Of a stretch of 64,000 nt of DNA, positions 29,779-51,391 are shown in pieces. The stretch lies in assembly GCA_046153865.1 (NCBI GenBank), contig JBJXFA010000068.1, positions 16,557 to 80,556 on the forward strand, read 5' to 3'. Each line of letters opens with the position of its first letter. Within the stretch, counting starts at the first letter, position 1. The translations under genes were made by a program, and so were the position numbers. This stretch comes from Sphingomonadaceae bacterium (GTDB taxonomy: Bacteria > Pseudomonadota > Alphaproteobacteria > Sphingomonadales > Sphingomonadaceae). Below the pieces are notes generated by a model. It saw only the letters and a list, made by a program, of their open reading frames with translations. It did not search any database and was not told the origin of the DNA.

Positions 29779-30711
29779 ATGGACGCAATTGCGGTCATAC
29801 TCGACGCGCCAGAGCGCCTCGACCTCCGTTCGCTCGCCCTCAATCCGCTGCAGGATGGCGACATCGTCGTCGAGATCGCATGGAGCGGCATCAGCACGGG
29901 CACCGAGCGACTGTTATGGTCGGGCCGGATGCCGGACTTCCCCGGCATGGGCTATCCGCTGGTGCCAGGTTACGAATCGGTCGGCCGTGTCGTCGATGCG
30001 GCGGCTGACGTGCGTGGCCGGATCGGCGAATGGGTCTTCGTGCCGGGCGCGAACTGTTACCAGGACGCACGCGGACTATTCGGTGGGACGGCAAGCCGGG
30101 TCGTGATGCCGGGCGCGCGGGCGCTGGCGATCCCCGAGTCGCTCGGTGTCTCGGGCGTGCTCATGGCACTTGCGGCGACTGCCTTTCACGCAATCGACGG
30201 CCATGCAGCGCCCGATCTGATCATTGGCCATGGCGTGCTCGGACGGCTGCTCGCACGAGTTGCAATTGCCAAAGGCGCGTCTGTGCTAATGGTCTGGGAA
30301 ACCAGCGCCGCGCGCACGGCGGGTGCCGAGGGTTACGCGGTCATCCATCCCGATGCCGATGACCGCCGCGACTACCGGGCAATCTATGATGCCAGCGGCG
30401 ACGCTTCGCTGATCGATTCGCTGATCGGGCGGCTCGCGCGCGGCGGCGAGATCGTACTTGCGGGGTTCTACGAAGCGCCGATCCAGTTTGCGTTCCCGTC
30501 CGCCTTCATGCGCGAAGCCCGGCTGCGGATTGCGGCTGAGTTCACGCCCGCCGACCTGACCGCCACAATTGCGCTGGTCGCGAGCGGTGCGCTGTCGCTC
30601 GACGGACTCGTCACCGACGTGCGGCCCGCCGCCGAAGCCGCCGACGCGTATCCGCATGCCTTTTCAAACCCTGAGTGCCTGAAGATGGCGCTTGACTGGA
30701 GTGCCGTATGA
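29779..30711 (+). CDS. bchC: 2-desacetyl-2-hydroxyethyl bacteriochlorophyllide dehydrogenase
   Basis: WSGISTGTERLLW.G.MP.FPGMGYPLVPGYE, FMREARLR. Confidence 0.95.
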   Translation: MDAIAVILDAPERLDLRSLALNPLQDGDIVVEIAWSGISTGTERLLWSGRMPDFPGMGYPLVPGYESVGRVVDAAADVRGRIGEWVFVPGANCYQDARGLFGGTASRVVMPGARALAIPESLGVSGVLMALAATAFHAIDGHAAPDLIIGHGVLGRLLARVAIAKGASVLMVWETSAARTAGAEGYAVIHPDADDRRDYRAIYDASGDASLIDSLIGRLARGGEIVLAGFYEAPIQFAFPSAFMREARLRIAAEFTPADLTATIALVASGALSLDGLVTDVRPAAEAADAYPHAFSNPECLKMALDWSAV

Positions 30712-31691
30712 GCATGCTCGATCCCGGCGCGTTGCGCGACGAGGCGCACGAGGAGCCCGATCCCGTGCACACCGGCCCGGTGACCAAGGAAACGCAGATC
30801 ATCGCGATCTACGGCAAGGGCGGCAGCGGCAAATCGTTTGCCTTGGCGAACCTCAGCTACATGATGGCGCAGCAGGGCAAGCGCGTGCTGCTCATCGGCT
30901 GCGATCCGAAGTCCGATACGACCAGCCTGCTCTTCGGCGGCAAATCGACGCCGACGATCATCGAGACCTCGTCGCGCAAGAAGCTCGCGGGCGAGGAGAT
31001 CGGCATCGAGGATGTCTGCTTCCAGCGCGACGGGGTGTTCGCGATGGAATTGGGCGGCCCCGAAGTCGGCCGCGGCTGCGGTGGGCGCGGGATCATCCAC
31101 GGCTTCGAGACGCTCGAGAAGCTGGGGTTTCACGAGTGGGGCTTCGATTACGTCTTGCTCGATTTCCTCGGCGATGTGGTGTGCGGCGGCTTCGGCCTGC
31201 CGATCGCGCGCGACATGTGCCAGAAGGTCATCGTCGTCGCGTCGAACGATCTTCAGTCGCTCTATGTCGCGAACAACGTCTGCAAGGCGGTCGAATATTT
31301 CCGCAAAATGGGCGGCAATGTCGGTGTCGCGGGGATGATCCTCAACAAGGACGACGGGACGGGCGAGGCGAACGCGTTCGCCGCCGCAGTCGGCATTCCG
31401 GTGCTCACCGCGATTCCCGCCAACGAGGATATCCGAAAGAAAAGCGCAAACTACCAGATCATCGGCAAGCCCGGCGGGCAATGGGCCTCGCTGTTCGAGG
31501 AACTCGCGATCAACGTCGCCGAAGCGCCGCCGCTGCGCCCGACGCCGCTCGATCAGGACGGGCTGCTGGGGCTGTTTTCGGCCGATGTTACGGGGGCGGA
31601 TTATTCGCTCAAGCCCGCGACGCAGGGCGATATGCGAGGGAGCGCGTTCGTGCCCAAGCCCTCGCTCGAAGTGGTCTATGATGCAGTCTGA
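30708..31691 (+). CDS. bchX: Chlorophyllide reductase iron protein
   Basis: [41 protein letters not shown]. Confidence 0.96.
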   Translation: MSMLDPGALRDEAHEEPDPVHTGPVTKETQIIAIYGKGGSGKSFALANLSYMMAQQGKRVLLIGCDPKSDTTSLLFGGKSTPTIIETSSRKKLAGEEIGIEDVCFQRDGVFAMELGGPEVGRGCGGRGIIHGFETLEKLGFHEWGFDYVLLDFLGDVVCGGFGLPIARDMCQKVIVVASNDLQSLYVANNVCKAVEYFRKMGGNVGVAGMILNKDDGTGEANAFAAAVGIPVLTAIPANEDIRKKSANYQIIGKPGGQWASLFEELAINVAEAPPLRPTPLDQDGLLGLFSADVTGADYSLKPATQGDMRGSAFVPKPSLEVVYDAV

Positions 31692-33300
31692 GGGCGCGAC
31701 CAATCCACCCCGGAACGGGGAGGTGCCCGAAGGGCAGAGGGGCCGGGTCGAGCTTGGCGCTTCCCTCGCAGCTGATGAGCGCGTTACGAGCGGCCCCTCC
31801 GACCCTTCGGGCCACCTCCCCGTTCCGGGGAGGATTGAAGGGGCCTGTTCCTCCAAAGACACACTGCGCGCGGCTGCGGTCGAGGCGGGTAAATCCGACG
31901 TGCTTGCGCGCTATGCGGCCGACTATCCGACCGGGCCGCACGATCAGCCGCAATCGATGTGCCCTGCGTTCGGATCTTTACGCGTCGGCCTGCGCATGAA
32001 GCGCACCGCGACGGTGCTCTCGGGTTCGGCGTGCTGCGTCTACGGGCTGACCTTTACCTCGCACTTCTACGGAGCCAAGCGCTCGGTCGGCTATGTGCCG
32101 TTCTCGTCCGAAACGCTCGTCACCGGCAAGCTGTTCGAGGACATCAAGGAAGCCGTCGAAGGCCTCGCCGACCCGGCGAACTACGACGCGATCATCGTCA
32201 CCAATCTCTGCGTGCCGACGGCGAGCGGCGTACCGCTGCAACTGCTGCCCAAGGCGATCAACGGCGTGCGGATCGTCGGGATCGACGTGCCCGGCTTCGG
32301 CATTCCGACGCATGCCGAGGCCAAGGACGTGCTCTCGGGCGCGATGCTGCACTATGCGCGCGCCGAGGCCGAAGCAGGGCCGGTCGCCGCGCCCAAGGAT
32401 CGTTCGGATTTGCCGACGGTGACGTTGCTCGGCGAGATGTTTCCGGCCGATCCCGTCGGCATCGGCCAGATGCTGGCGCCGCTCGGGCTGGCGGCAGGTC
32501 CGGTCGTGCCGACGCGCGAGTGGCGCGAGCTCTATGCAGCACTCGATTGCGCGTGCGTCGCGGCGATCCATCCCTTTTACTCGGCCAGCGTCCGCGAATT
32601 CGAAGCGGCGGGGCGGACCGTGATCGGCTCGGCGCCTGTCGGCATTGACGGCACGGCAGCCTGGCTTGACGCGGTGGGTGCCGCCTGCGGGATCGCGCAG
32701 GCCAAGGTCGATGATGCGAAGAACCGCTTCGTCCCCGCCATTCGCGCCGCTCTCGCCGCCAAGCCCATTTCGGGACGCATCACGGTCTCGGGCTATGAGG
32801 GCTCCGAACTACTGGTGGCGCGCCTTCTGATCGAAAGCGGCGCAGAAGTCCCTTATGTCGGCACGGCCTGCCCGCGCACCGTGTGGAGCGACCCCGATCG
32901 CGACTGGCTCGTCGCGCGCGGCGTTCATGTGGAATATCGCGCGAGCCTCGAGAAAGACCTTCAGGCCGTCGACGCGTTCGCGCCCGATCTTGCGATCGGC
33001 ACGACGCCGGTCGTTCAGCACGCCAAGGCGCGGTCGATCCCGGCGCTCTATTTCACCAACCTGATCTCGGCGCGCCCGCTGATGGGCGTCGCGGGGGCAG
33101 GCTCGCTCGCGCAGGTCGTCAACGCGGCGATGGCGAACAAGGATCGTTTCGAGCGGATGACGGACTTCTTCGAAGGCGTCGGCAATGGGCACACGGCGGG
33201 CGTCTGGGAAAAGACTCCGGTCGATCGCCCCGAGTTCAAGGCCAAGTTCGCCGCCAAGCGCATCGCCGCCGCCAAGGCCGAGGAGGCTGTCGGTGTTTAG
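31678..33300 (+). CDS. bchY: Chlorophyllide reductase subunit Y, with N-terminal in-frame palindrome insert
   Basis: GPHDQPQSMCPAFGSLRVGLRM, GSACCVYG, NLCVPTASG. Confidence 0.95.
   Translation: MMQSEGATNPPRNGEVPEGQRGRVELGASLAADERVTSGPSDPSGHLPVPGRIEGACSSKDTLRAAAVEAGKSDVLARYAADYPTGPHDQPQSMCPAFGSLRVGLRMKRTATVLSGSACCVYGLTFTSHFYGAKRSVGYVPFSSETLVTGKLFEDIKEAVEGLADPANYDAIIVTNLCVPTASGVPLQLLPKAINGVRIVGIDVPGFGIPTHAEAKDVLSGAMLHYARAEAEAGPVAAPKDRSDLPTVTLLGEMFPADPVGIGQMLAPLGLAAGPVVPTREWRELYAALDCACVAAIHPFYSASVREFEAAGRTVIGSAPVGIDGTAAWLDAVGAACGIAQAKVDDAKNRFVPAIRAALAAKPISGRITVSGYEGSELLVARLLIESGAEVPYVGTACPRTVWSDPDRDWLVARGVHVEYRASLEKDLQAVDAFAPDLAIGTTPVVQHAKARSIPALYFTNLISARPLMGVAGAGSLAQVVNAAMANKDRFERMTDFFEGVGNGHTAGVWEKTPVDRPEFKAKFAAKRIAAAKAEEAVGV
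31702..31836 (+). repeat. 135-bp palindromic element (copy A), in frame within bchY
   Basis: Arms AATCCACCCCGGAACGGGGAGGTG / CACCTCCCCGTTCCGGGGAGGATT; 45 codons, no stop. Confidence 0.9.
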
Positions 33301-33310
33301 CGCCGCTCCT

Positions 33311-33447
33311 AATCCTCCCCGGAACGGGGAGGTGCCCGCAGGGCGGAGGGGCCGGGTCGAGCGCGTCGCCCGTTTCGAGGCATTGGCGCGCGCGTCGAGC
33401 GGCCCCTCCACCACTTCGTGGTCCTCCTCCCCGTTCCGGGGAGGATT
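33311..33447 (+). repeat. 137-bp palindromic element (copy B) between bchY and bchZ
   Basis: Arms AATCCTCCCCGGAACGGGGAGG / CCTCCCCGTTCCGGGGAGGATT; inner GGAGGGGCC..GGCCCCTCC. Confidence 0.9.
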
Positions 33448-33450
33448 CAG

Positions 33451-34905
33451 ATGACCCTCATTCTCGATCATGATCGCGCGGGCGGCTATTGGGGCGCGGT
33501 CTACGCGTTCACCGCGATCAAGGGCCTGCAAGTCATTATCGACGGCCCGGTGGGCTGTGAGAACCTGCCCGTCACGAGCGTCCTGCATTATACCGACGCG
33601 CTGCCGCCGCATGAATTGCCGATCGTCGTCACCGGCCTCGGCGAGCAGGAACTCGGCCGCGACGGCACCGAAGGCGCGATGAAGCGCGCGTGGAAAACGC
33701 TCGATCCCGATCTCCCTGCGGTCGTCGTCACGGGCAGCATTTCCGAAATGATCGGCGGCGGCGTGACGCCCGAGGGGACGAACATCGTTCGCTTCCTCCC
33801 GCGCACAATCGACGAGGATCAGTGGCAGGCGGCCGACCGCGCGCTGACCTGGCTGTGGACGCAGTTCGGGCCGAAGAAAGTGCCTGGTCCGCGCCTGATC
33901 CCCGAAGGCGGGAAGCCCAAGGTCAACATTATCGGGCCGATGTACGGGACCTTCAACATGCCGAGCGATCTGGCCGAGATCCGGCGGCTGGTCGAGGGCA
34001 TCGGTTGCGAAGTCGCGATGGCGTTTCCGCTCGGCAGCCACCTCGCCGATGTGCGCAAGCTTGCCGATGCGAGCGTCAATGTGTGCATGTATCGCGAGTT
34101 TGGGCGCGGGCTGTGCGAGACGCTCGAGCGGCCGTATCTGCAGGCGCCGATCGGGCTCGAGAGCACGACCTCGTTCCTGCGCAAATTGGGCGAGCTGACG
34201 GGCCTCGATCCCGAGCCGTTCATCGAGCGCGAGAAGCACACCACGATCAAACCCCTGTGGGATCTGTGGCGCTCGGTCACGCAGGATTTCTTCGGCACGG
34301 CAAGCTTCGGCGTCGTCGCGACCGAGACCTACGAACGCGGTCTACGCAATTTCCTCGAAGCCGATATGGGCCTGCCCTGCAATTTCGCTTTCCGCCGGTC
34401 GGCAGGGATCAAGCCGGACAATGCAGCGGTGCGGGCCGCGATCCATGGCAATCCGCCGCTCGTGCTGTTCGGCAGCTTCAACGAGCGGATGTATTCGGCC
34501 GAAGCCGGTGGGCGCAGCATGTTCATCCCCGCTTCCTTCCCCGGTGCCGTTATCCGGCGGCACACCGGTACGCCCTTCATGGGATATGCGGGCGCGACCT
34601 ATATCGTTCAGGAAGTGTGCAACGCGCTGTTTGACGCGCTGTTCAACATCCTGCCGCTCGCGACCACGATGGACGCCATCCCTGCCACGCCCGCGCGCAC
34701 CGAGGTGCAGCTGCGCTGGCAGGACGCGGCGCAGGTCGCCTTCGATGCCCTGATCGAGGCGCAGCCCGTGCTGATCCGTATTTCCGCTGCCAAGCGCGTC
34801 CGCGACGCTGCCGAGCGGGCCGCGCGGCTTGCCGGTGCATCCGACGTAACGCCCGCGCATGTCGCGAGCGCGGCACGATCGCTTTTCGAAGGAGCCGCTG
34901 CGTGA
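33451..34905 (+). CDS. bchZ: Chlorophyllide reductase subunit Z
   Basis: [35 protein letters not shown]. Confidence 0.95.
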
Positions 34906-35013: not shown

Positions 35014-35244
35014 ATGACTGACCACGATAGAGATCGGCCGTCGACGTATCTGACGCCCGAAGAAGCGAAGGCGTTCCAGAACCTCTTCGTTTTGAGCATG
35101 GGGTTTTTCGTAACCGTCGCCGTCATTGCCCATATTCTGATCTGGGTCTGGCGTCCGTGGTTCCCGGGAACACCCGGCTACGAAGCAACGCGCACGTCGG
35201 CGCTCTCGCCCGTCGTTGCAACGCAACCCATCAATAAAGCCTAG
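35014..35244 (+). CDS. pufB: LH1 antenna beta subunit
   Basis: [18 protein letters not shown] with BChl-ligating His. Confidence 0.93.
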
Positions 35245-35258
35245 AAAGGAGCATTCCC

Positions 35259-35459
35259 ATGTGGAGAATGTGGATGATGTTCGACCCGCGCCGGATTTTG
35301 ACGGCGCTGGCGATCTTCCTGTTTACGCTGGCAATTCTGATTCACTTCATCTTGCTCAGCACCAATCGCTATAACTGGCTCGAAGCGCCTAATCCGGTGG
35401 GTGCGCCAGCAGCCGTCGTTGCGGCGCCGGCAGTGGTTGCGCCTTCGACGACGCAGTGA
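35259..35459 (+). CDS. pufA: LH1 antenna alpha subunit
   Basis: [25 protein letters not shown]. Confidence 0.95.
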
Positions 35460-35553: not shown

Positions 35554-35610
35554 AAATCGAAGACTGAATTTTAGGCACCGCGCGCATGCGCGGTGGTGAG
35601 GGAGCTGGCC

Positions 35611-36450
35611 ATGGCCTTGCTGAGCTTTGAGCGGAAATACCGTGTTCGCGGGGGGACGCTCGTCGGGGGAGACCTGTTCGATTACTGGGTCGGGCCCTTT
35701 TATGTCGGCTTCTTCGGCGTCACGACCGCGTTTTTCGCGGCGCTCGGGACCGCGCTGATCCTCTACGGAGCCTCGCTGGGGCCGACATGGAACCCCTGGC
35801 TGATCTCGATCGCGCCGCCTGACCTGAAATACGGGCTGGCACTGGCACCGCTCAAGGAGGGCGGGCTGTGGCAGATCATCACGATCTGCGCCATCGGGGC
35901 GTTCGTATCCTGGGCGCTGCGCGAGGTCGAAATTTGCCGCAAGCTCGGCATGGGCTATCATGTGCCGATCGCGTTCGGCGTTGCCATCTTCGCCTATGTC
36001 ACGCTCGTGGTGTTCCGCCCGTTCCTGCTCGGGGCCTGGCATTTCGGCTTCCCTTACGGGATCTTCAGCCATTTGGACTGGGTGTCGAACACCGGCTACC
36101 AGTATCTCCATTTCCACTACAATCCGGCGCACATGCTGGCCGTGTCGTTCTTCTTTACGACAACGCTGGCGCTCGGGCTGCACGGGTCGCTGGTGCTTTC
36201 GGCGGTGAACGCGCCCAAAGACGAGCGCGGCGTGCCCGGTCGCGTCAAGTCGCCCGAATATGAAGACACCTTCTTCCGCGACATCATCGGCTATTCGATC
36301 GGCACGCTGGGCATCCACCGGCTCGGCCTGATCCTCGCGCTCAACGCCGGCTTCTGGAGCGCGGTGTGCATCATCATCTCGGGGCCGTTCTGGACGCGCG
36401 GCTGGCCCGAATGGTGGACGTGGTGGCTCAACCTGCCGATCTGGTCGTGA
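35611..36450 (+). CDS. pufL: Photosynthetic reaction centre L subunit
   Basis: [35 protein letters not shown]. Confidence 0.98.
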
Positions 36451-36464
36451 AGGGGAGGGGTTCG

Positions 36465-37436
36465 ATGGCAAGTTATCAAAACATCTTCACGCAAGTTCAG
36501 ATCATGGGTCCGCCCGAATACGGGCCAGGGCTCCCCCGCGAAGACAGTCCGCGCACCGGTGTCGGTGGCTTCAGCTACTGGGCGGGCAAGATCGGCAATG
36601 CACAGATCGGCCCCATTTATCTCGGCTGGTTCGGCACGCTGTCGATCGTGTTCGGCGTCATCGCGTTCGAGATCATCGGCCTCAACATGTGGGCCTCGGT
36701 CGGCTGGGATCCGATCCAGTTCGTCCGCCAGCTGTTCTGGCTCGCGCTCGAGACGCCCGATGCCAAATGGGGCTTCACGCCGTTCGTGCCGCTGGCCGAA
36801 GGTGGCTGGTGGATCCTGGCCGGCGCATTCCTCACGCTCTCGGTGATCCTCTGGTGGGTCCGCACATACCGGCGCGCACGCGCGCTCAACATGGGCACGC
36901 ATGTCGCCTGGGCGTTTGCGAGCGCGATCTTCCTGTTCCTCGTGCTCGGCTTCATCCGTCCGATGCTGATGGGCAGCTGGGCCGAAGCGGTGCCGTTCGG
37001 CATCTTCCCGCATCTCGATTGGACCGCCGCCTTCTCGATCCGCTACGGCAACTTGTTCTATAACCCTTTCCATTGCCTCTCGATCGTGTTCCTTTACGGG
37101 TCGACGCTGCTCTTTGCGATGCACGGCGCGACCGTGCTCGCCACCGGCCGCTACGGCGCCGAGCGCGAGATCGAGCAGATCACCGATCGCGGCACCGCGT
37201 TCGAACGCGGCGCACTGTTCTGGCGCTGGACGATGGGCTTCAATGCGACGGCGGAGTCGATCCACCGCTGGGCGTGGTGGTTCTCGGTGCTGACGACGCT
37301 GACCGGCGGGATTGGCATCCTGCTGACCGGCACGGTCGTCGACAACTGGTATCTGTGGGCGCAACAGCATCATTTCGCGCCGAGCTATCCACCGACCGGC
37401 ACGGTCGATCCGCTCACGCTTCCGGGAGCACAATGA
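36465..37436 (+). CDS. pufM: Photosynthetic reaction centre M subunit
   Basis: [43 protein letters not shown]. Confidence 0.98.
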
Positions 37437-38926
37437 TGAAGGCTTCACCTCTCCTCACCGCTTCGGTCGCTCCGCTCGCGCTGGTCCTGGCCTTAAGTGG
37501 CTGCGAGTTCGGCCCCAAGGTTTCGAACCAGATGGGCTATCGCGGCACCGGCGTGAACCAGATCGTCGATCGCGACTCCATCACACCGCAAGTTGCCATC
37601 CCGGCCAATGCCTATGAGACGCCCGCCGATGACAGCGGCCCGCGCGCCAGCGAAACCTACCAGAATGTGCAGGTCTTGGGCGGCGTTTCGACTGACCGGT
37701 TCAATCACTTCATGGCGCAGATGAACAATTGGGTGGTGCCCGCCCAAGGGTTGCCCGAAAGCGAGCAGGGCTGCAATTACTGCCACAATCCCGAGAACAT
37801 GGCGTCCGACGAGAAATACACCAAAGTGGTCTCGCGCCGGATGATCCAGATGACGCAGAATATTAACGCCAACTGGACGAGCCATGTCCAGCAAACCGGC
37901 GTCACCTGCTGGACCTGTCATCGCGGCCAGGCCGTGCCGACCTATCGCTGGGCCATGCCCGCAAGCGGCACGAACGGCACGATCGTGAACAACAAGCGCG
38001 GCCAGAACACGCCAGCCCCGCAAGTCGCCTTTGCGTCGCTGCCCAATGATCCATTCGGGCCGTATCTCACTGGCCCCAAAGTCGAGAACATCCGCGTCGG
38101 CGGCAACGTCCATCCGGGGATGACGACCGCATCGACCAAGGATGCCGAAAAGACCTATGGTCTGATGATGCATATGTCGGCCGGGCTCGGCGTCAACTGC
38201 ACCTATTGCCACAATACGCAGAACTTCCAGTCCTGGACGAACAGCACCAAACAGCGTGCCGTCGCTTGGCATGGCCTGCGGATGGTCGCGCAGGCGAACC
38301 ATGAGTATGTGACGCCACTCAGCCCGGTGATCCCGGTCAAGAGCGCGGTCGTCGGCTATGATGCCGCGCGCAAAGGCCCGATGGGCGATCCCTACAAGAT
38401 CAACTGCCAGACCTGCCACCAGAACATCTACAAGCCGATGTATGGCACGAGCATGCGCGCCGAAAACCCGGTGCTGTGGCCCGCAGCGCTTGCCATTACG
38501 ACGCGCGCACCCGTCGCCGATCCGAACGCGACCGCGGCGAGCTGCGATGCCGAATTCGCGCGCGCGCTGGCGGGCAAGACGATCGAGTTCGACACTGGTG
38601 CCGCGACGATCCGGGCGACATCCGCGCCGCTGCTCGACAATCTCGTGCAGGTGGCAGGGCGCTGCTCGAACTTCCGCATGTCAGTGGAGGGGCATACCGA
38701 CGCGACCGGCAATGCGGCGGCGAACATGACGCTCAGCGACGCGCGCGCCGAGGCGGTGACCAAGTATCTGACCGAACGCGGCGTCGCGGCCGGGCAGCTC
38801 GCCGCCACCGGATACGGCCCGACACGCCCGATCGACTCTTCGGGCAGCCCCGAAGGCAACCAGAAGAACCGCCGGATCGAAATAAACGTCGGCGGGGCGG
38901 CACCGGGGACGGCCGTGGGGCGCTAG
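37433..38926 (+). CDS. pufC: Tetraheme RC cytochrome fused to a C-terminal OmpA-like peptidoglycan-binding domain
   Basis: LSG-C lipobox; CNYCH, CWTCH, CTYCH, CQTCH; then IEF..EGHTD..N..LS..RA..V..YL..GYG..P..NRRIEI in the same frame. Confidence 0.93.
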
Positions 38927-39507
38927 CCGACGAAGCCGTTGGTCGGGATTGTCAGGTCTGACACGGTCAGGGCGCTGAGCGGTTCCCCGAAAGACACGCT
39001 ATCCGTCTGCAAATACCCGGCGGGTTGCGGGCTGGCGTGGCGAACGATGCGCTTACCCGCGCGGTCGACCACCCAATATTCGGGCACGCCATTGCGGGCG
39101 TACAGCAACGCCTTGCGGATAAAGTCGAAATCGAGCGAACTGTCTGAAACCTCGATGGCAATCCGCAGCCGCGCGAGCGGGAGCAACCCCTCTTCGATCT
39201 CGCCTTCGCGTTCGGCAATCGAAAGATCGGGTTCGGGGATCGAATCCTCCGACATATCGACGCTGCCCGCGCTGTAGACGACGAGTGTCGTGTCGATAGC
39301 GCGAAGCGCGAGACTGAGTTCCACATTTAGAACCGATTGTACGCGCGCGTCCCAGCGATGAACCGCATTCACGACCCAAATTTCCCCCTCAATCAATTCG
39401 GCGCGCGCATAGCCGTCAAACGCACCGCCTTCGGCAAGCCGGTTGAAATTAGCCGCCGTCAGTCGCGCGCGCTGCGGGGCAGGATCGATCCGCTGGTGGT
39501 AGGCCAC
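38923..39507 (-). CDS. Uma2 family (PD-(D/E)XK) endonuclease-like protein
   Basis: RAELIEGEI, H, PEPD, IEVSDSSL..D..K..LYA..GVPEYWVVD. Confidence 0.88.
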   Translation of the reverse strand: MAYHQRIDPAPQRARLTAANFNRLAEGGAFDGYARAELIEGEIWVVNAVHRWDARVQSVLNVELSLALRAIDTTLVVYSAGSVDMSEDSIPEPDLSIAEREGEIEEGLLPLARLRIAIEVSDSSLDFDFIRKALLYARNGVPEYWVVDRAGKRIVRHASPQPAGYLQTDSVSFGEPLSALTVSDLTIPTNGFVG

Positions 39508-39544: not shown

Positions 39545-40771
39545 TCACGCCGCCATCGGTTTCCTCGCCAGTGCGCACATGCTCCAGCATTCGCTTAGCG
39601 CTTCGACCAGCCGGTCGATGTCGCCGTCGGTGTGTACCGGGCTCGGCGTGATCCGCAGGCGTTCGGTGCCTTTGGGAACGGTCGGGTAGTTGATCGGCTG
39701 CACATAGATGCCGTGATTGTCCATCAGCCAGTCGCTGATCATCTTGGCGTGGTGCGGATCGCCGACCATGACGGGTATGATGTGGCTGGGATTGGGCAGG
39801 TGCGGGATGCCGAGCGCATCGAGGCGCTGGCGGACGATCTTGACGCGGTTCTGGTGGCGGACGCGCTCGATCTGGCTTTCCTTGAGGTGGCGGATCGAGG
39901 CGGCCGCGCCCGCTGCGATTGCGGGGGGTAAGGCGGTCGAGAAGATGAAGCCGCTCGCGAAGCTGCGGACGAAATCGCACACCGTTTTCGAGCCGGTGAT
40001 GTAGCCGCCCATCACGCCGAAAGCCTTGCCGAGCGTGCCTTCGATTACCGTGATCCGGTCCATCAGCCCTTCACGCTCGGCGATGCCCCCGCCGCGCGGA
40101 CCATAAAGGCCGACGGCGTGGACCTCGTCGATGTAGCTCATCGCGCCGTGCCGTTCGCAGACATCGAGGATTTCGGCGATCGGCGCGATGTCGCCGTCCA
40201 TCGAATAGACGCTTTCAAACGCGACCAGCTTGGGGCGACCCGGCTCGATCGTGGCCAGCAGCCGGTCGAGCTCTTGCGGGTCGTTGTGCCGGAACTTGAG
40301 GCATTGTGCACGGCTGTGGCGAATGCCTTCGATCATCGAGGCGTGGTTAAGCGCGTCCGACAAGACGACGCACCCCGGCAGGCGCGCGGCCAGCGTGCCA
40401 AGTGCCGCCCAGTTGGAGACATAGCCGCTGGTGAAGATCAGCGCGGCGTCCTTGCCATGGAGGTCGGCGAGTTCGGCCTCGAGCAGCACATGCTGGTGAC
40501 TGGTGCCCGAAATGTTGCGCGTGCCGCCTGCGCCCGCGCCGCAACGGTCGAGCGTTTCGTGCATCGCATCGAGCACTTTGGGATGCTGGCCCATGCCCAG
40601 ATAATCGTTCGAGCACCAGACGGTCACGTCCTGGACGCCGCCATCCTCGGTCCAGCGCCGCGCTCTTGGGTAGCTGCCGCGCTGACGCTCGAGCTCGGCG
40701 AAGACGCGGTAGTTGCCGGCCTCGCGCAAGCCATCGAGTTGCTCGCCCATCAGCGCTTCATAGTCGATCAT
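39545..40771 (-). CDS. hemA: 5-aminolevulinate synthase
   Basis: [43 protein letters not shown]. Confidence 0.96.
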
Positions 40772-40783
40772 CCGATCCTCCCC

Positions 40784-41539
40784 TTAACTTCGATTGTGCG
40801 CCGGGATTGCCCAGCGCCACAAGGCCCCGTCACGCAACGGCAGCACCAAAAACAGATGTTCGATCAGGCCGAGCACGGCGAGCCCGGTCAACAGCGACCA
40901 GCCGACGGCCTCGTCGGCGGCAAGCGCGCGCGCGGCCAGCCACCAGGTCAAGACGGCGATGGCTGCAAGCGAGACGAGCATCGCGACGCCCATCGGCCGC
41001 ACCCGGAAATAGCTTTTCAGATAGGCAAGCTGCGGCGGCAGGATGTCGGGCGTGAAATTGGGCACGCCCATGAAGATGTTGAGTTTGGTCGATAGACGCA
41101 AGCCAAAGAGCAAGCCGAATGCGGCAGCGCCGCTCCAGTTGGGCTGGCTCCAGCTCAGCGCGATCAACAACGCGAGCGTTGCCGCCAGCGCGATTTCGTG
41201 GTGGATCACGGTCGCCGCCGACAGCCGAAATCGCTCCCAGCCCTGCGCGCCAGCCGGAAGCGGGGCTTGCCGCGGCCCGGTGATGTGACCGGTGAGGAAG
41301 GCAAGCTCGTGCCAGCCCCAGATCGCGAATGCTGCCGTAAAGGCTGCATAGGCAGCGAATGGTTCGGCGCGATGGGCCGTCAGCGCGATCACCGCCGCCC
41401 CCGCAACCGCCGCCAGCCCCATGATGTAAAGCGCCAGCGGCCCGCGCGCCCGGTGATCAAGCGCGACGACGAGCGCGGTCGATAAAAACCACAGCATCGC
41501 CACATAGATGAGCGGCAGAAGATGCGTTGTTGCGCTCAC
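40784..41539 (-). CDS. puhE: Photosynthetic complex assembly protein PuhE (DUF3623)
   Basis: [38 protein letters not shown]; GTGA coupling to acsF. Confidence 0.88.
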
Positions 41540-42633
41540 CAGACGGGGGCCAGTCTGACTTTGGCAGGCAACGGGTTTTCCTCGGCGCGCTGGAAAAACA
41601 GCCGCGCAAAGGTCCAGCCAGCGGCGGCCATCGCGCCCAGCCGCCGCGCCTTGTTGAGGAGGCCGGATTTGCCCCGCAGCTCGTCCATCCGGCGCGAAAT
41701 GCGCAGCATGTCGTCCATCCGCGCGCGGAAGGCGGGGGTGTCGCAGTCGATCGCAATCGGGAAGCACTGGCGGCTGATCTCGGTGGTCAGGCGGAAGACA
41801 GCATAATCATAGTCGGTGATGTCCATGCCGAACGCATCGTAAAGCGCCGGGCGCGTATGATCGCGGACATACATGGTCGCATAGACCGACAGGATGAAAA
41901 AGCGGATCCACAGGCGGTTGATGCCCTTGGTCAACTTGGGATCGGCGCGGATGAGGAGTGCGAGCGCTTCGCCGTGGCGGAACTCGTCGTTGCACCAGCT
42001 TTCGAACCATTCGAAGATCGGGTGGAAGCGCTTTTCGGGATGCTGCTCGAGATGGCGGAAAATCTTGATATAGCGCGCATAGCCGATCTTTTCGGACAGA
42101 TAGGTGGCGTACCAGATGAATTTCGGCTGGAAATAGGTGTATTTCTTGGCCTTGGTCAGAAAGCCGAGATCGATGCCGATGCCTGCATCCTTCAGGCTGT
42201 CGTTGATGAAGCCGGCATGGCGGCTCTCGTCGCGCGCGAGGAATTTCATCAGCCGCTTCATGTCGGGATTCTTCGTCCGCCGCGCCATTTCGGCATAGAG
42301 GATGCAACCCGAAAATTCGGACGTCATCGACGAGAGCAGGAAATCGATGAACTCGCCGCGCAGCGTGGGTGGCAGGCGCTCGATCACCCCGTCGAACGAC
42401 GCGTTCTTCTTGAAATGCAGCTTGTTGGGGTCCGCTGCCATCTCGGCCATCAGCCCGTCCCACTCAGCGCGAACGCGTGAAACGTCGATCGCATCGAGTG
42501 CGTCGAAGTCGGTGGTGTAGAAGCGCGGCGACAGGATGGTCTCGTTCGAAACTTCGCGCTTCAGTTCGTCCACGCTCGGCATGGCGGGCGCAGGCGCGAT
42601 GGCCGCGGCGGACTTGAGGGCCAGGGTGCTCAT
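41536..42633 (-). CDS. acsF: Mg-protoporphyrin IX monomethyl ester oxidative (aerobic) cyclase
   Basis: [44 protein letters not shown] di-iron motifs. Confidence 0.96.
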
Positions 42634-44752: not shown

Positions 44753-46131
44753 TCAGGCAGGGAATTCGGCGAGGCCGAACCGCTGCGAGGGGATGAGAGT
44801 CTCGCGCGCGCGCCGCCCGACAAGCGGGCCGATCGCGACGAGCGTTGCAAGCAACAACAGGATTTCGATGAGATAGACCGCGGTGTAGCCGGTGGTCGCG
44901 TCGCCTGCGCCGAAGGCTTCGCGCAGGATGCCGCCCAGCGCGATCGCGGTGCCCGCGCAGGAGGCCTGCACCGCGCCCCACGCGCCGAGCGCCAGCCCCG
45001 AGCGCCCGCTTTGCGACAGTGCCATCGCCGCCGTCAGCGTGCCGACCGAAAACAACCCGCCGCCAAAGCCCAGCACCGCCGCGCCGAGCGCGAGTAATGT
45101 CGGCGACTGTGCGGGGGCAGCAAAGATGATCATCAGGAACGCGCCAATCCCGGCGACCCCGCCGTTGCCCGCCAGCCGGTGCGTATCGCCACCGTTCGTG
45201 AGCGTCCGGGCGGCAAGCGCGAAACCACCAAGTGTGCCCAATGCCCAGAGCGCGGTCAGCGACGTCGTCGCGCTCACCGAAAGCCCCAGCACCTGGCCGC
45301 CATAGGGCTCGAGCAGAACGTCCTGCATTGCAAAAGCTGCCGCGCCAAAGCCGGTGGCAAGCAGCAGCCGCTTGGCGTCGGGCTGGCTCACGAATGCGGC
45401 CCAGACATCCCCGAACGCCGGACGCTCGGCTGCGCTGCGGGGAAGCGCACCGCGCGCCTCCTGCTTCCACAGCGCGACCGTGTTGAACACCATCGTCAGC
45501 ACCGCGCCCGTCGAGACCACCTGAACGAGCCGCGTCGCCGAAAAGTCGGCCAGCGCCTGACCGATCGCGACCGCGCTCACCATCGTGCCGATGAGCAGCA
45601 TGACGTAGAGCAGCGCGACCACGCGCGGGGCTTTGTCGGCGGTCGCCAGATCGGTTGCGAGCGCCAGTCCCGCCGTCTGCGTCGTGTGCATACCCGCGCC
45701 GACCAGCAGAAACGCAAGTGCCGCCCCCGTGTGGCCGATCCATGCTGGCCCCGCGCCACCGCCCGACATCACGAGCAGCGCAAACGGCATGATCGCCAGC
45801 CCGCCGAACTGCAGCAGCGATCCGAACCAGATATAGGGCACGCGCCGCCAGCCGAAGACCGAGCGGTGCGTATCGGACTTGTGGCCGATCAGCGCGCGCA
45901 TCGGCGCGAACAGCAGCGGTAGCGCGACCATGATCGCAACGAGCGCGCTGGACATGCCAAGCTCGACAATCATCACGCGATTCAGCGTTCCGGTGAGCAG
46001 GACGGCGGTCATGCCGACCGAGACCTGAAATAGCGACAGGCGCAGGATGCGGGTCAGCGGCAGATCGGCGCTTGCGGCATCGGCAAAGGGCAGAAAGCGC
46101 GTGCCGATGCCGGTCCAGAAGGCGGCGCGCA

Positions 46132-46135
<4 letters not shown>
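44753..46135 (-). CDS. lhaA: PucC-family LH1 assembly protein
   Basis: RLSLFQVSVGM, TLNRVMIVEL, QDVLLEPYGG; upstream of puhA. Confidence 0.9.

Positions 46136-51391
<5,256 letters not shown>

Follow-up and report, generated by a model that had tools for sequence, protein, structure and literature searches.

What is an OmpA-like domain, of the kind that binds peptidoglycan, doing at the end of a photosynthetic cytochrome? The question is raised by a gene at 37433..38926 on the forward strand of a 64,000-nucleotide stretch of a Sphingomonadaceae contig (JBJXFA010000068.1), the whole of which we call the window. The gene is a single unbroken frame of 497 codons plus stop in which the tetraheme cytochrome PufC runs on into an OmpA-like domain. 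We show here the identity of both domains and the position of the gene in the puf operon. We also put at roughly 55% the probability of the fuller reading, judged from sequence: that the product is the PufC bound to the reaction centre (RC) of a Sphingomonadales-like aerobic anoxygenic phototroph, and that its OmpA-like extension serves as a flexible tether from the core complex of RC and light-harvesting complex 1 (LH1) to the sacculus.

PufC is the periplasmic subunit that re-reduces the special pair, and in Blastochloris it is lipid-anchored. The fusion protein begins with a signal peptide and lipobox, LALSG-C24 (37433..37504; this and all following features lie on the forward strand unless stated otherwise), whose C24, the predicted lipid-modified N-terminus, is invariant across 120 homologues. 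The tetraheme CytoC_RC domain (PF02276, E 5e-114, profile positions 6-309 of 310) covers amino acids (aa) 30-348 (37520..38476), and the NCBIfam PufC equivalog NF040706 scores 386.6 bits against a cutoff of 150, over profile positions 4-310 of 312. Four CxxCH heme motifs, CNYCH, CWTCH, CTYCH and CQTCH, occupy aa 114-118 (37772-37786), 159-163 (37907-37921), 256-260 (38198-38212) and 325-329 (38405-38419), and the distal (sixth) heme ligands, three Met and one His (M94, M137/M140, H151 and M245), are likewise invariant in 120 homologues. The cytochrome part terminates as ...KPMYG..ENPVLW349. The start codon of the gene overlaps the stop codon of pufM (ATGA), and the gene order in the window is the bchCXYZ-pufBALMC of a classical photosynthesis gene cluster.

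Past W349 comes an Ala/Pro/Thr linker of 13 aa (aa 350-362, 38480..38518), predicted to be disordered, and then the OmpA-like module (aa 363-489, 38519..38899), which consists of an N-terminal helix carrying C371 followed by the OmpA_C fold. The Pfam OmpA family (PF00691) matches aa 386-480 with an E value of 1.7e-20 and 73.6 bits, against a gathering threshold of 27.2, over profile positions 2-98 of 98. The original prediction had read from the letters alone the uninterrupted frame, the lipobox, the four CxxCH sites with their distal ligands, the PufC end and the OmpA motifs with a Cys pair, all of which are present, and the profile scan it proposed does place both families in one protein. 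Its boundaries needed correction, since it gave the linker about 20 aa and the OmpA domain as ~38543-38890, which leaves out the start of the Cys-bearing helix. The computed mass of the mature apoprotein is ~50.8 kDa, and that of the cytochrome domain alone (residues 24-348) is ~35.7 kDa.

The Asp of GHTD and the Arg of LSxxRA are the residues by which OmpA-like domains hold, non-covalently, to the peptide stem of peptidoglycan. The module carries its motifs in the order DPNATAAS-C371, IEFDTG, C411, EGHTD423, LSDAR438A, GYGPTRP and NRRIEI, with the two Cys codons at 38543-38545 (C371) and 38663-38665 (C411), GHTD with D423 at 38690-38701, LSDARA with R438 at 38732-38749 and NRRIEI at 38867-38884. 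D423 and R438 stand 15 residues apart, the spacing of Acinetobacter baumannii OmpA, and on this equivalence by motif and spacing we take them to correspond to D271 and R286 of that protein, which presumably contact the diaminopimelate of the peptide stem. The original prediction had assigned peptidoglycan contact to the Asp of GHTD and the Arg of NRR; both motifs are indeed intact, but by this spacing the peptidoglycan-contacting Arg of the A. baumannii structures would correspond to R438 of LSxxRA here and not to the NRR motif. The fusion protein reaches the cutoff of no named OmpA-family equivalog in NCBIfam. The best-scoring of these, the YiaD family (NF053611), gives 103.4 bits against a cutoff of 175, in a match confined to its OmpA half (profile positions 102-206) that lacks the glycine-zipper N-domain, and Pal (TIGR02802, 62.2 against 125.35), MotD (64.3 against 283) and MotS (53.6 against 264) also fall below their cutoffs.

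Structure prediction gave the same division. In an AlphaFold2 model built on a 120-sequence alignment (mean predicted local distance difference test score, pLDDT, of 77) the cytochrome domain lies mostly above 70, the score dips below 50 at aa 353-357, and the module scores 88-95 across the greater part of aa 361-460, then 79-87 as far as aa 490, so that two domains joined by a disordered linker are predicted. This run was used instead of one with a 19-sequence alignment, in which the cytochrome domain had an unusable pLDDT of 46.8. In Foldseek searches with the predicted model, the best match of the cytochrome part was the corresponding chain of the Rhodothalassium salexigens LH1-RC complex (9m8m_C, TMt 0.82, E 1.5e-24), and the module matched the C-terminal OmpA domain of Capnocytophaga gingivalis (5wtp) with TMt 0.84-0.86, a root mean square deviation of 2.0 and 44% identity; further matches of the module were ArfA/Rv0899, PA0833, YiaD, OprF and Pal. 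The C-domain of Rv0899 has two Cys that align with the pair in the module and that we take to form a disulfide. We infer a C371-C411 disulfide, which would fit a periplasmic domain oxidised by DsbA.

A fusion of this kind invites the suspicion that it is an error, and the sole published mention of such proteins (PMC12650329) left inaccurate gene models as a possibility. Four runs of biofilter metagenomes and one of freshwater sediment contain the stretch. Contigs from three independent biofilter runs are exact across 38432-38653, including the linker, with no mismatch, indel or joint; this check is of low depth and was made with Logan contigs rather than raw reads, and it covers the region 38460-38545 that the original prediction had singled out for verification. 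Both Pfam domains occur in one protein of 473-568 aa in ~75 of the 120 nearest clusters at 90% identity, which came from JGI, ENA, NCBI and Logan assemblies and extend down to 46% identity. The tail after L348 is bimodal among 201 PufC sequences, measuring either 5-64 or 120-232 aa, and the fusion is also found on contigs that are large or complete, as well as in the genome of AAP99, an isolate. These observations confirm that the junction is genuine, and the published caveat is thereby removed.

The module also bears the marks of a part that is kept. Among the 72 proteins that share the window's module type, which we call class I, mean pairwise identity is 0.77 in the helix before the Pfam match, 0.71 in the OmpA domain, 0.67 in the cytochrome core and 0.50 in the linker. 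All 72 retain C371, C411, H421, T422, S435, R438, N479, R480, R481 and E483, 71 retain D423, and the spacer from L348 to the DPNAT motif measures 16-19 aa in 62 of the 72. Distances in the module and in the cytochrome co-vary (r = 0.61, Mantel p = 0.001), and therefore the module has mostly travelled with its cytochrome. These alignments show purifying selection on the module, the pattern of a working domain rather than of a decaying passenger.

How widespread is the combination? A scan of one genome per species of the Genome Taxonomy Database returned the 80 nearest loci, of which 20 carry a long PufC. With the share among the nearest clusters given above, this shows that the architecture is not rare among the relatives of this protein. 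The carriers are Sphingomonas and other Sphingomonadaceae metagenome-assembled genomes (MAGs), a Hyphomonadaceae MAG, Myxococcota MAGs and, in the Burkholderiales, MAGs of Rubrivivax, Rhizobacter, Methylibium, Piscinibacter and Rhodoferax together with the cultured Beta proteobacterium AAP99 (L054). CytoC_RC plus OmpA was confirmed by Pfam in all eight long PufCs tested, and long pufC lies directly 3' of pufM in 19 of 19 loci with upstream sequence.

The attached modules are not all of one descent. The window module scores 115-231 bits against other class I members and 95-98 bits against the free-standing C. gingivalis OmpA domain, compared with 69-73 against Rv0899, 63-66 against the Hyphomonadaceae PufC module, 51-77 against the Myxococcota modules, 21-41 against a second Sphingomonadaceae type (L011, L076) and 14-33 against the Burkholderiales modules. 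Small uncharacterised free-standing OmpA proteins of 157-259 aa match the class I module along its whole length, Cys pair included, with 43-55% identity. (A homology search with the domain alone recovered no fused PufCs and was used just for the nearest free-standing relatives.) Because the window module scores higher against a free-standing OmpA domain than against the PufC modules of Burkholderiales, Myxococcota and Hyphomonadaceae (14-78 bits in all), we conclude that the modules are non-orthologous and that OmpA-like modules joined operonic PufC at least four times, convergently. Nothing argues more strongly for an advantage of the combination than this recurrence of independent fusions. 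Every module class retains the Arg of LSxxRA. The Burkholderiales module is a compact variant, YFGVGAS...SG[YF]HSASG...ARRVEV, kept across genera (L041, L051, L053, L054, L061, L066, L069, L071, L073 and L074), in which Ser replaces the Asp of GHTD and a deletion of 5 residues removes the GYG strand.

Other PufCs are extended in other ways. One Myxococcota PufC from a MAG (L028:4931-6418) has a thrombospondin-type-3-like DTDGDGVFDDKDQC spacer (DxDxDG type) ahead of its OmpA domain, resembling the spacers of many outer-membrane OmpA proteins, and an uncleaved-looking N-terminal transmembrane helix in place of the lipobox. The PufC-family proteins P0145 (764 aa), P0151 (691), P0152 (1532), P0135 (551) and P0139 (531) carry extensions of 150-1150 aa without a Pfam match. 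PufC thus seems often to carry extra periplasmic sequence, and some of the long extensions could be gene-calling run-ons.

The original prediction proposed that the RC-LH1 core may be clamped to the cell wall, with positioning at poles or septum or a fixed periplasmic geometry for cytochrome shuttling as possible functions. What stands of this is a real in-frame fusion with an OmpA-like fold, under selection and with the canonical residues, for which a tether is the most economical reading; the particular functions are conjectural. According to this reading, the protein would be exported and lipid-anchored via Cys24, bind four hemes and dock on the periplasmic face of RC-LH1 as any PufC does. 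The module, on its 13-residue linker at the tip of a cytochrome which already projects far into the periplasm, could then reach the sacculus, where D423 and R438 would give it a non-covalent hold on the peptide stem. RC-LH1 cores of the cytoplasmic membrane would each be tied to the wall in this way, with lateral mobility restricted and the core held in wall-apposed membrane. Export, lipidation, peptidoglycan binding and any physiological effect are in this scheme inferred. We know of no intracytoplasmic membranes in the fusion-bearing lineages (aerobic anoxygenic Sphingomonadales and Burkholderiales), whose photosystems would lie directly beneath the wall. What did not stand is the belief that no wall-tethered photosystem had been described. 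Besides the Puf-OmpA fusions already mentioned in print (PMC12650329), PsaB of Gloeobacter violaceus has a 155-aa C-terminal outer-membrane-protein-like extension, detected by mass spectrometry (PMC11565984), which is hypothesised to anchor photosystem I (PSI) to peptidoglycan, a proposal published in 2004, for which that article cites its ref. 20.

Several observations weigh against a tether. Given the changes in the Burkholderiales module, some classes may not bind peptidoglycan. In Sphingomonadales, PufCs with and without the module interleave on a neighbour-joining tree of the cytochrome domain, and pairs 90-92% identical in that domain differ in module state (P0035/P0071, P0015/P0065, L006/P0084 and P0034/P0092). 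The fused and unfused sequences diverge ~0-12 residues past NP[TV]LWP, where the unfused go on with an Ala/Pro-rich tail of 20-45 aa, and no OmpA remnant or split gene was found downstream of the unfused pufC in L003, L004, L005 and L007. That very close relatives lack the module suggests that it is dispensable, at least in some backgrounds. Fitch parsimony on a 200-leaf neighbour-joining tree requires at least 33 state changes, a rough figure as the tree is unsupported and recombination is possible; in the majority of them the 3' end was probably lost or replaced, since the class I module is monophyletic and co-inherited. A search of RNA runs found none that contains the gene, and the literature gives no experiment on any Puf-OmpA protein. 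In Gloeobacter, the PsaB extension is unresolved in cryo-electron microscopy and its binding to the wall is a hypothesis only (PMC11565984).

We also considered whether the unfused state might be a frameshifted fusion, and rejected this idea in view of the missing remnant in the close relatives. All cultured Sphingomonadales in the scan are unfused (S. glacialis, S. yantingensis, S. qilianensis, Sandarakinorhabdus, Erythrobacter, Aurantiacibacter and Novosphingobium), and the class I members that bear a source name are all MAGs, which is probably the reason that the protein has escaped the notice of biochemists.

Of the explanations that compete with a tether, the one that survives best holds that the module is functional but does not bind peptidoglycan, and instead mediates contacts between proteins, for example by dimerising neighbouring cores, docking a periplasmic or outer-membrane partner, or recruiting an electron donor. 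The OmpA-like domains of MotB, OmpA and YfiB dimerise or bind partner proteins, YfiB-YfiR complexes are among the structural matches of the module, and the Burkholderiales class is conserved across genera though it lacks the canonical Asp. This is nevertheless an unlikely account of the window's protein: both canonical contact residues are kept in 71-72 of 72 class I members, the closest relatives of the module are unremarkable free-standing proteins of the OmpA family that share its motifs, and the recruitment of several unrelated OmpA-like subtypes points to a property they have in common, namely wall binding, rather than to one specific partner.

Somewhat harder to sustain is the view that the module is a dispensable passenger, either clipped after export to leave a PufC of ~38 kDa or retained without effect on photosynthesis. 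The presence/absence polymorphism among near-identical PufCs speaks for it, a disordered Ala/Pro linker is a plausible protease site, and the Gloeobacter extension is, as noted, missing from the cryo-electron microscopy map. A passenger would be expected to decay, however, whereas conservation in the module exceeds that in the cytochrome core and its functional residues are invariant; it was also gained independently several times, and its spacer stays within a narrow range of lengths. We therefore regard this explanation as improbable.

A third possibility is that the protein is not bound to the RC and acts as a peptidoglycan-tethered periplasmic tetraheme cytochrome. That the domain pair alone is no proof of RC association is illustrated by look-alikes from Thiocapsa roseopersicina and Halochromatium, found in a search of 1.84 billion cluster representatives. 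These (P0129, at L081:6001-8838, and also P0128, P0130, P0132 and P0134) are proteins of 689-1323 aa with N-terminal CytoC_RC, a coiled-coil repeat (ARL[DE]Q.R.AL.QQL.VVR.QRD) and C-terminal OmpA, encoded outside puf operons. The gene of the Thiocapsa type lies between genes for SoxA-like, SoxY, SoxZ and HiPIP proteins and one for an rRNA methyltransferase, and there are no puf genes on its contig. For the window gene this possibility is very remote: it overlaps the pufM stop within pufBALMC, no second pufC was found among the cluster open reading frames (ORFs) examined, the product scores as the PufC equivalog, and its cytochrome domain groups with PufCs of Sphingomonadales that are operonic and lack the fusion (58-73% identity to the nearest), with other members of the same class 90-92% identical to unfused PufCs. 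Weakest of all, the idea that an error of assembly, reading frame or gene model has merged pufC with an adjacent gene of the OmpA family can be dismissed as practically negligible on the junction contigs, the ~75 clusters from several assembly sources, the bimodal tails and the isolate genome.

The look-alikes have an interest of their own. We had entertained the idea that they are extreme RC tethers whose linker length scales with internal membranes, and rejected it in view of their sox/HiPIP neighbours and the missing puf genes. Their gene neighbourhood suggests that they may be a wall-tethered paralogue tied to sulfur oxidation, an electron hub, and they provide no evidence on reaction centres. 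As NCBI's Prokaryotic Genome Annotation Pipeline (PGAP) labels one of them PufC, they also serve as a warning to annotators that this name has been given to a sox/HiPIP-linked Chromatiaceae paralogue.

If the tether reading is extended beyond the window, a wider and distinctly more tentative picture can be drawn, one we think possible rather than probable. Phototrophs with photosystems in the cytoplasmic membrane may have arrived recurrently and convergently at non-covalent tethering of the photosystem to the sacculus, through PufC in Sphingomonadales, Hyphomonadaceae, Burkholderiales and Myxococcota, through PufM in some lineages and through PsaB in Gloeobacter; the tether would control the placement and the range of movement of RC-LH1, and because it is rapidly gained and lost among close relatives it might be an ecologically tuned accessory trait. 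As the fusion lineages are not known to form intracytoplasmic membranes and Gloeobacter is without thylakoids, the distribution fits a role that is meaningful only where the photosystem sits in wall-apposed membrane.

The remaining genes of the cluster lie on both sides of the fusion gene. Upstream lie bchC (29779-30711), bchX (30708-31691), bchY (31585-33300) and bchZ (33418-34905), followed by pufB for LH1 beta (35014-35244, Pfam LHC E 4.6e-9), pufA for LH1 alpha (35259-35459, Pfam LHC E 8e-15), pufL (35593-36450, TIGR01157 with 433.6 bits against a cutoff of 266) and pufM (36465..37436, TIGR01115 with 518.7 bits). The longest pufM ORF begins at 36366, inside pufL; because the profile match begins only at aa 34 of that ORF, the true start is probably the ATG at 36465 (MASYQ...), 15 nt past the pufL stop. 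On the reverse strand lie hemA (39545-40771), puhE (40784-41767), a PucC-family gene (44753-46135) and a bchM-like gene (46132-46965). Between pufC and hemA, and convergent with pufC, is a gene of 194 aa for a putative restriction endonuclease of the Uma2 family (38923-39507, reverse strand, Pfam E 2e-21), which overlaps the pufC stop by 4 nt; the interval from pufC to hemA is ~0.7-2.6 kb across related loci.

Why should the mode of attachment of one cytochrome matter? Nearly all work on how RC-LH1 is organised has used purple bacteria that form intracytoplasmic membranes. Aerobic anoxygenic phototrophs are abundant in lakes, oceans and biofilms, yet little is known of the way their few photosystems are arranged in the cytoplasmic membrane. 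If true, a tether from the core complex to the wall would be a new organising principle for photosystems, and a single domain that can be deleted or mutated would offer a concrete handle on whether the position or mobility of a photosystem matters. Since one form of the fusion is present in a strain in culture, AAP99, an experiment is feasible.

With regard to known systems, one close comparison is with canonical PufC (Blastochloris viridis 1PRC, Thermochromatium tepidum 3WMM and Rhodothalassium salexigens 9M8M), which belongs to the same family by PF02276 and NF040706. It has in common with the fusion protein the four CxxCH motifs with Met/Met/Met/His ligands, a lipobox, a gene placed 3' of pufM and, by prediction, the fold. 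None of the more than 20 solved PufC chains exceeds 405 aa; they have a short tail and no folded C-terminal domain, whereas the fusion adds ~135 residues. The module, for its part, has the fold and the GHTD, LSxxRA and NRRxE motifs of free-standing OmpA-like domains (5WTP; ArfA/Rv0899, 2L26 and 2LBT; E. coli YiaD; Pal), which unlike it are autonomous envelope proteins. In its working logic the arrangement resembles the MotB/PomB stators, in which an inner-membrane complex is held by an OmpA-like domain at the C-terminus on a flexible periplasmic linker. In contrast to the stators, there is here no ion-channel partner and no plug region, and the sequence matches are weak, with scores far below the cutoffs, so that the analogy is one of mechanism only.

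Proteins of the same architecture were reported as three PufM and some PufC homologues with an OmpA-like domain, with gene neighbourhoods in Fig. 10E (Biomolecules 2025;15:1529, PMC12650329; bioRxiv 10.1101/2025.09.22.677880). That mention, of three sentences, calls the Puf-OmpA fusions relatively rare and comes without census, junction check, conservation analysis or classes. In the literature on PufC or the RC cytochrome with OmpA or peptidoglycan we found the fusion mentioned only there, and two recent reviews that treat the structure of RC-LH1 and the photosynthetic machinery of aerobic anoxygenic phototrophs (PMC12654162, PMC10214105) do not have it. The PufC-OmpA fusion is thus already described in passing, yet uncharacterised; what is new here is the removal of the artefact caveat, the selection on the module, the multiple independent fusions, the polymorphism among close relatives and the separation of the Chromatiaceae paralogue.

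Gloeobacter PsaB provides a close parallel in another photosystem. Residues 753-864 of PsaB (7f4v_aB) align to residues 33-138 of the module with an E value of 7e-14. That photosystem is of type I and oxygenic, and the carrier is an integral membrane core subunit, whereas the carrier here is a peripheral lipoprotein cytochrome. Because the carrier subunits are unrelated, the PsaB and PufC fusions are independent events involving homologous modules. The window's protein fits an architectural class, a core photosystem subunit with a periplasm-facing C-terminal OmpA-like domain, rather than a sequence family. If the tether is real, it would revive the 2004 proposal for the PSI of Gloeobacter, with the same solution found in type II photosystems.

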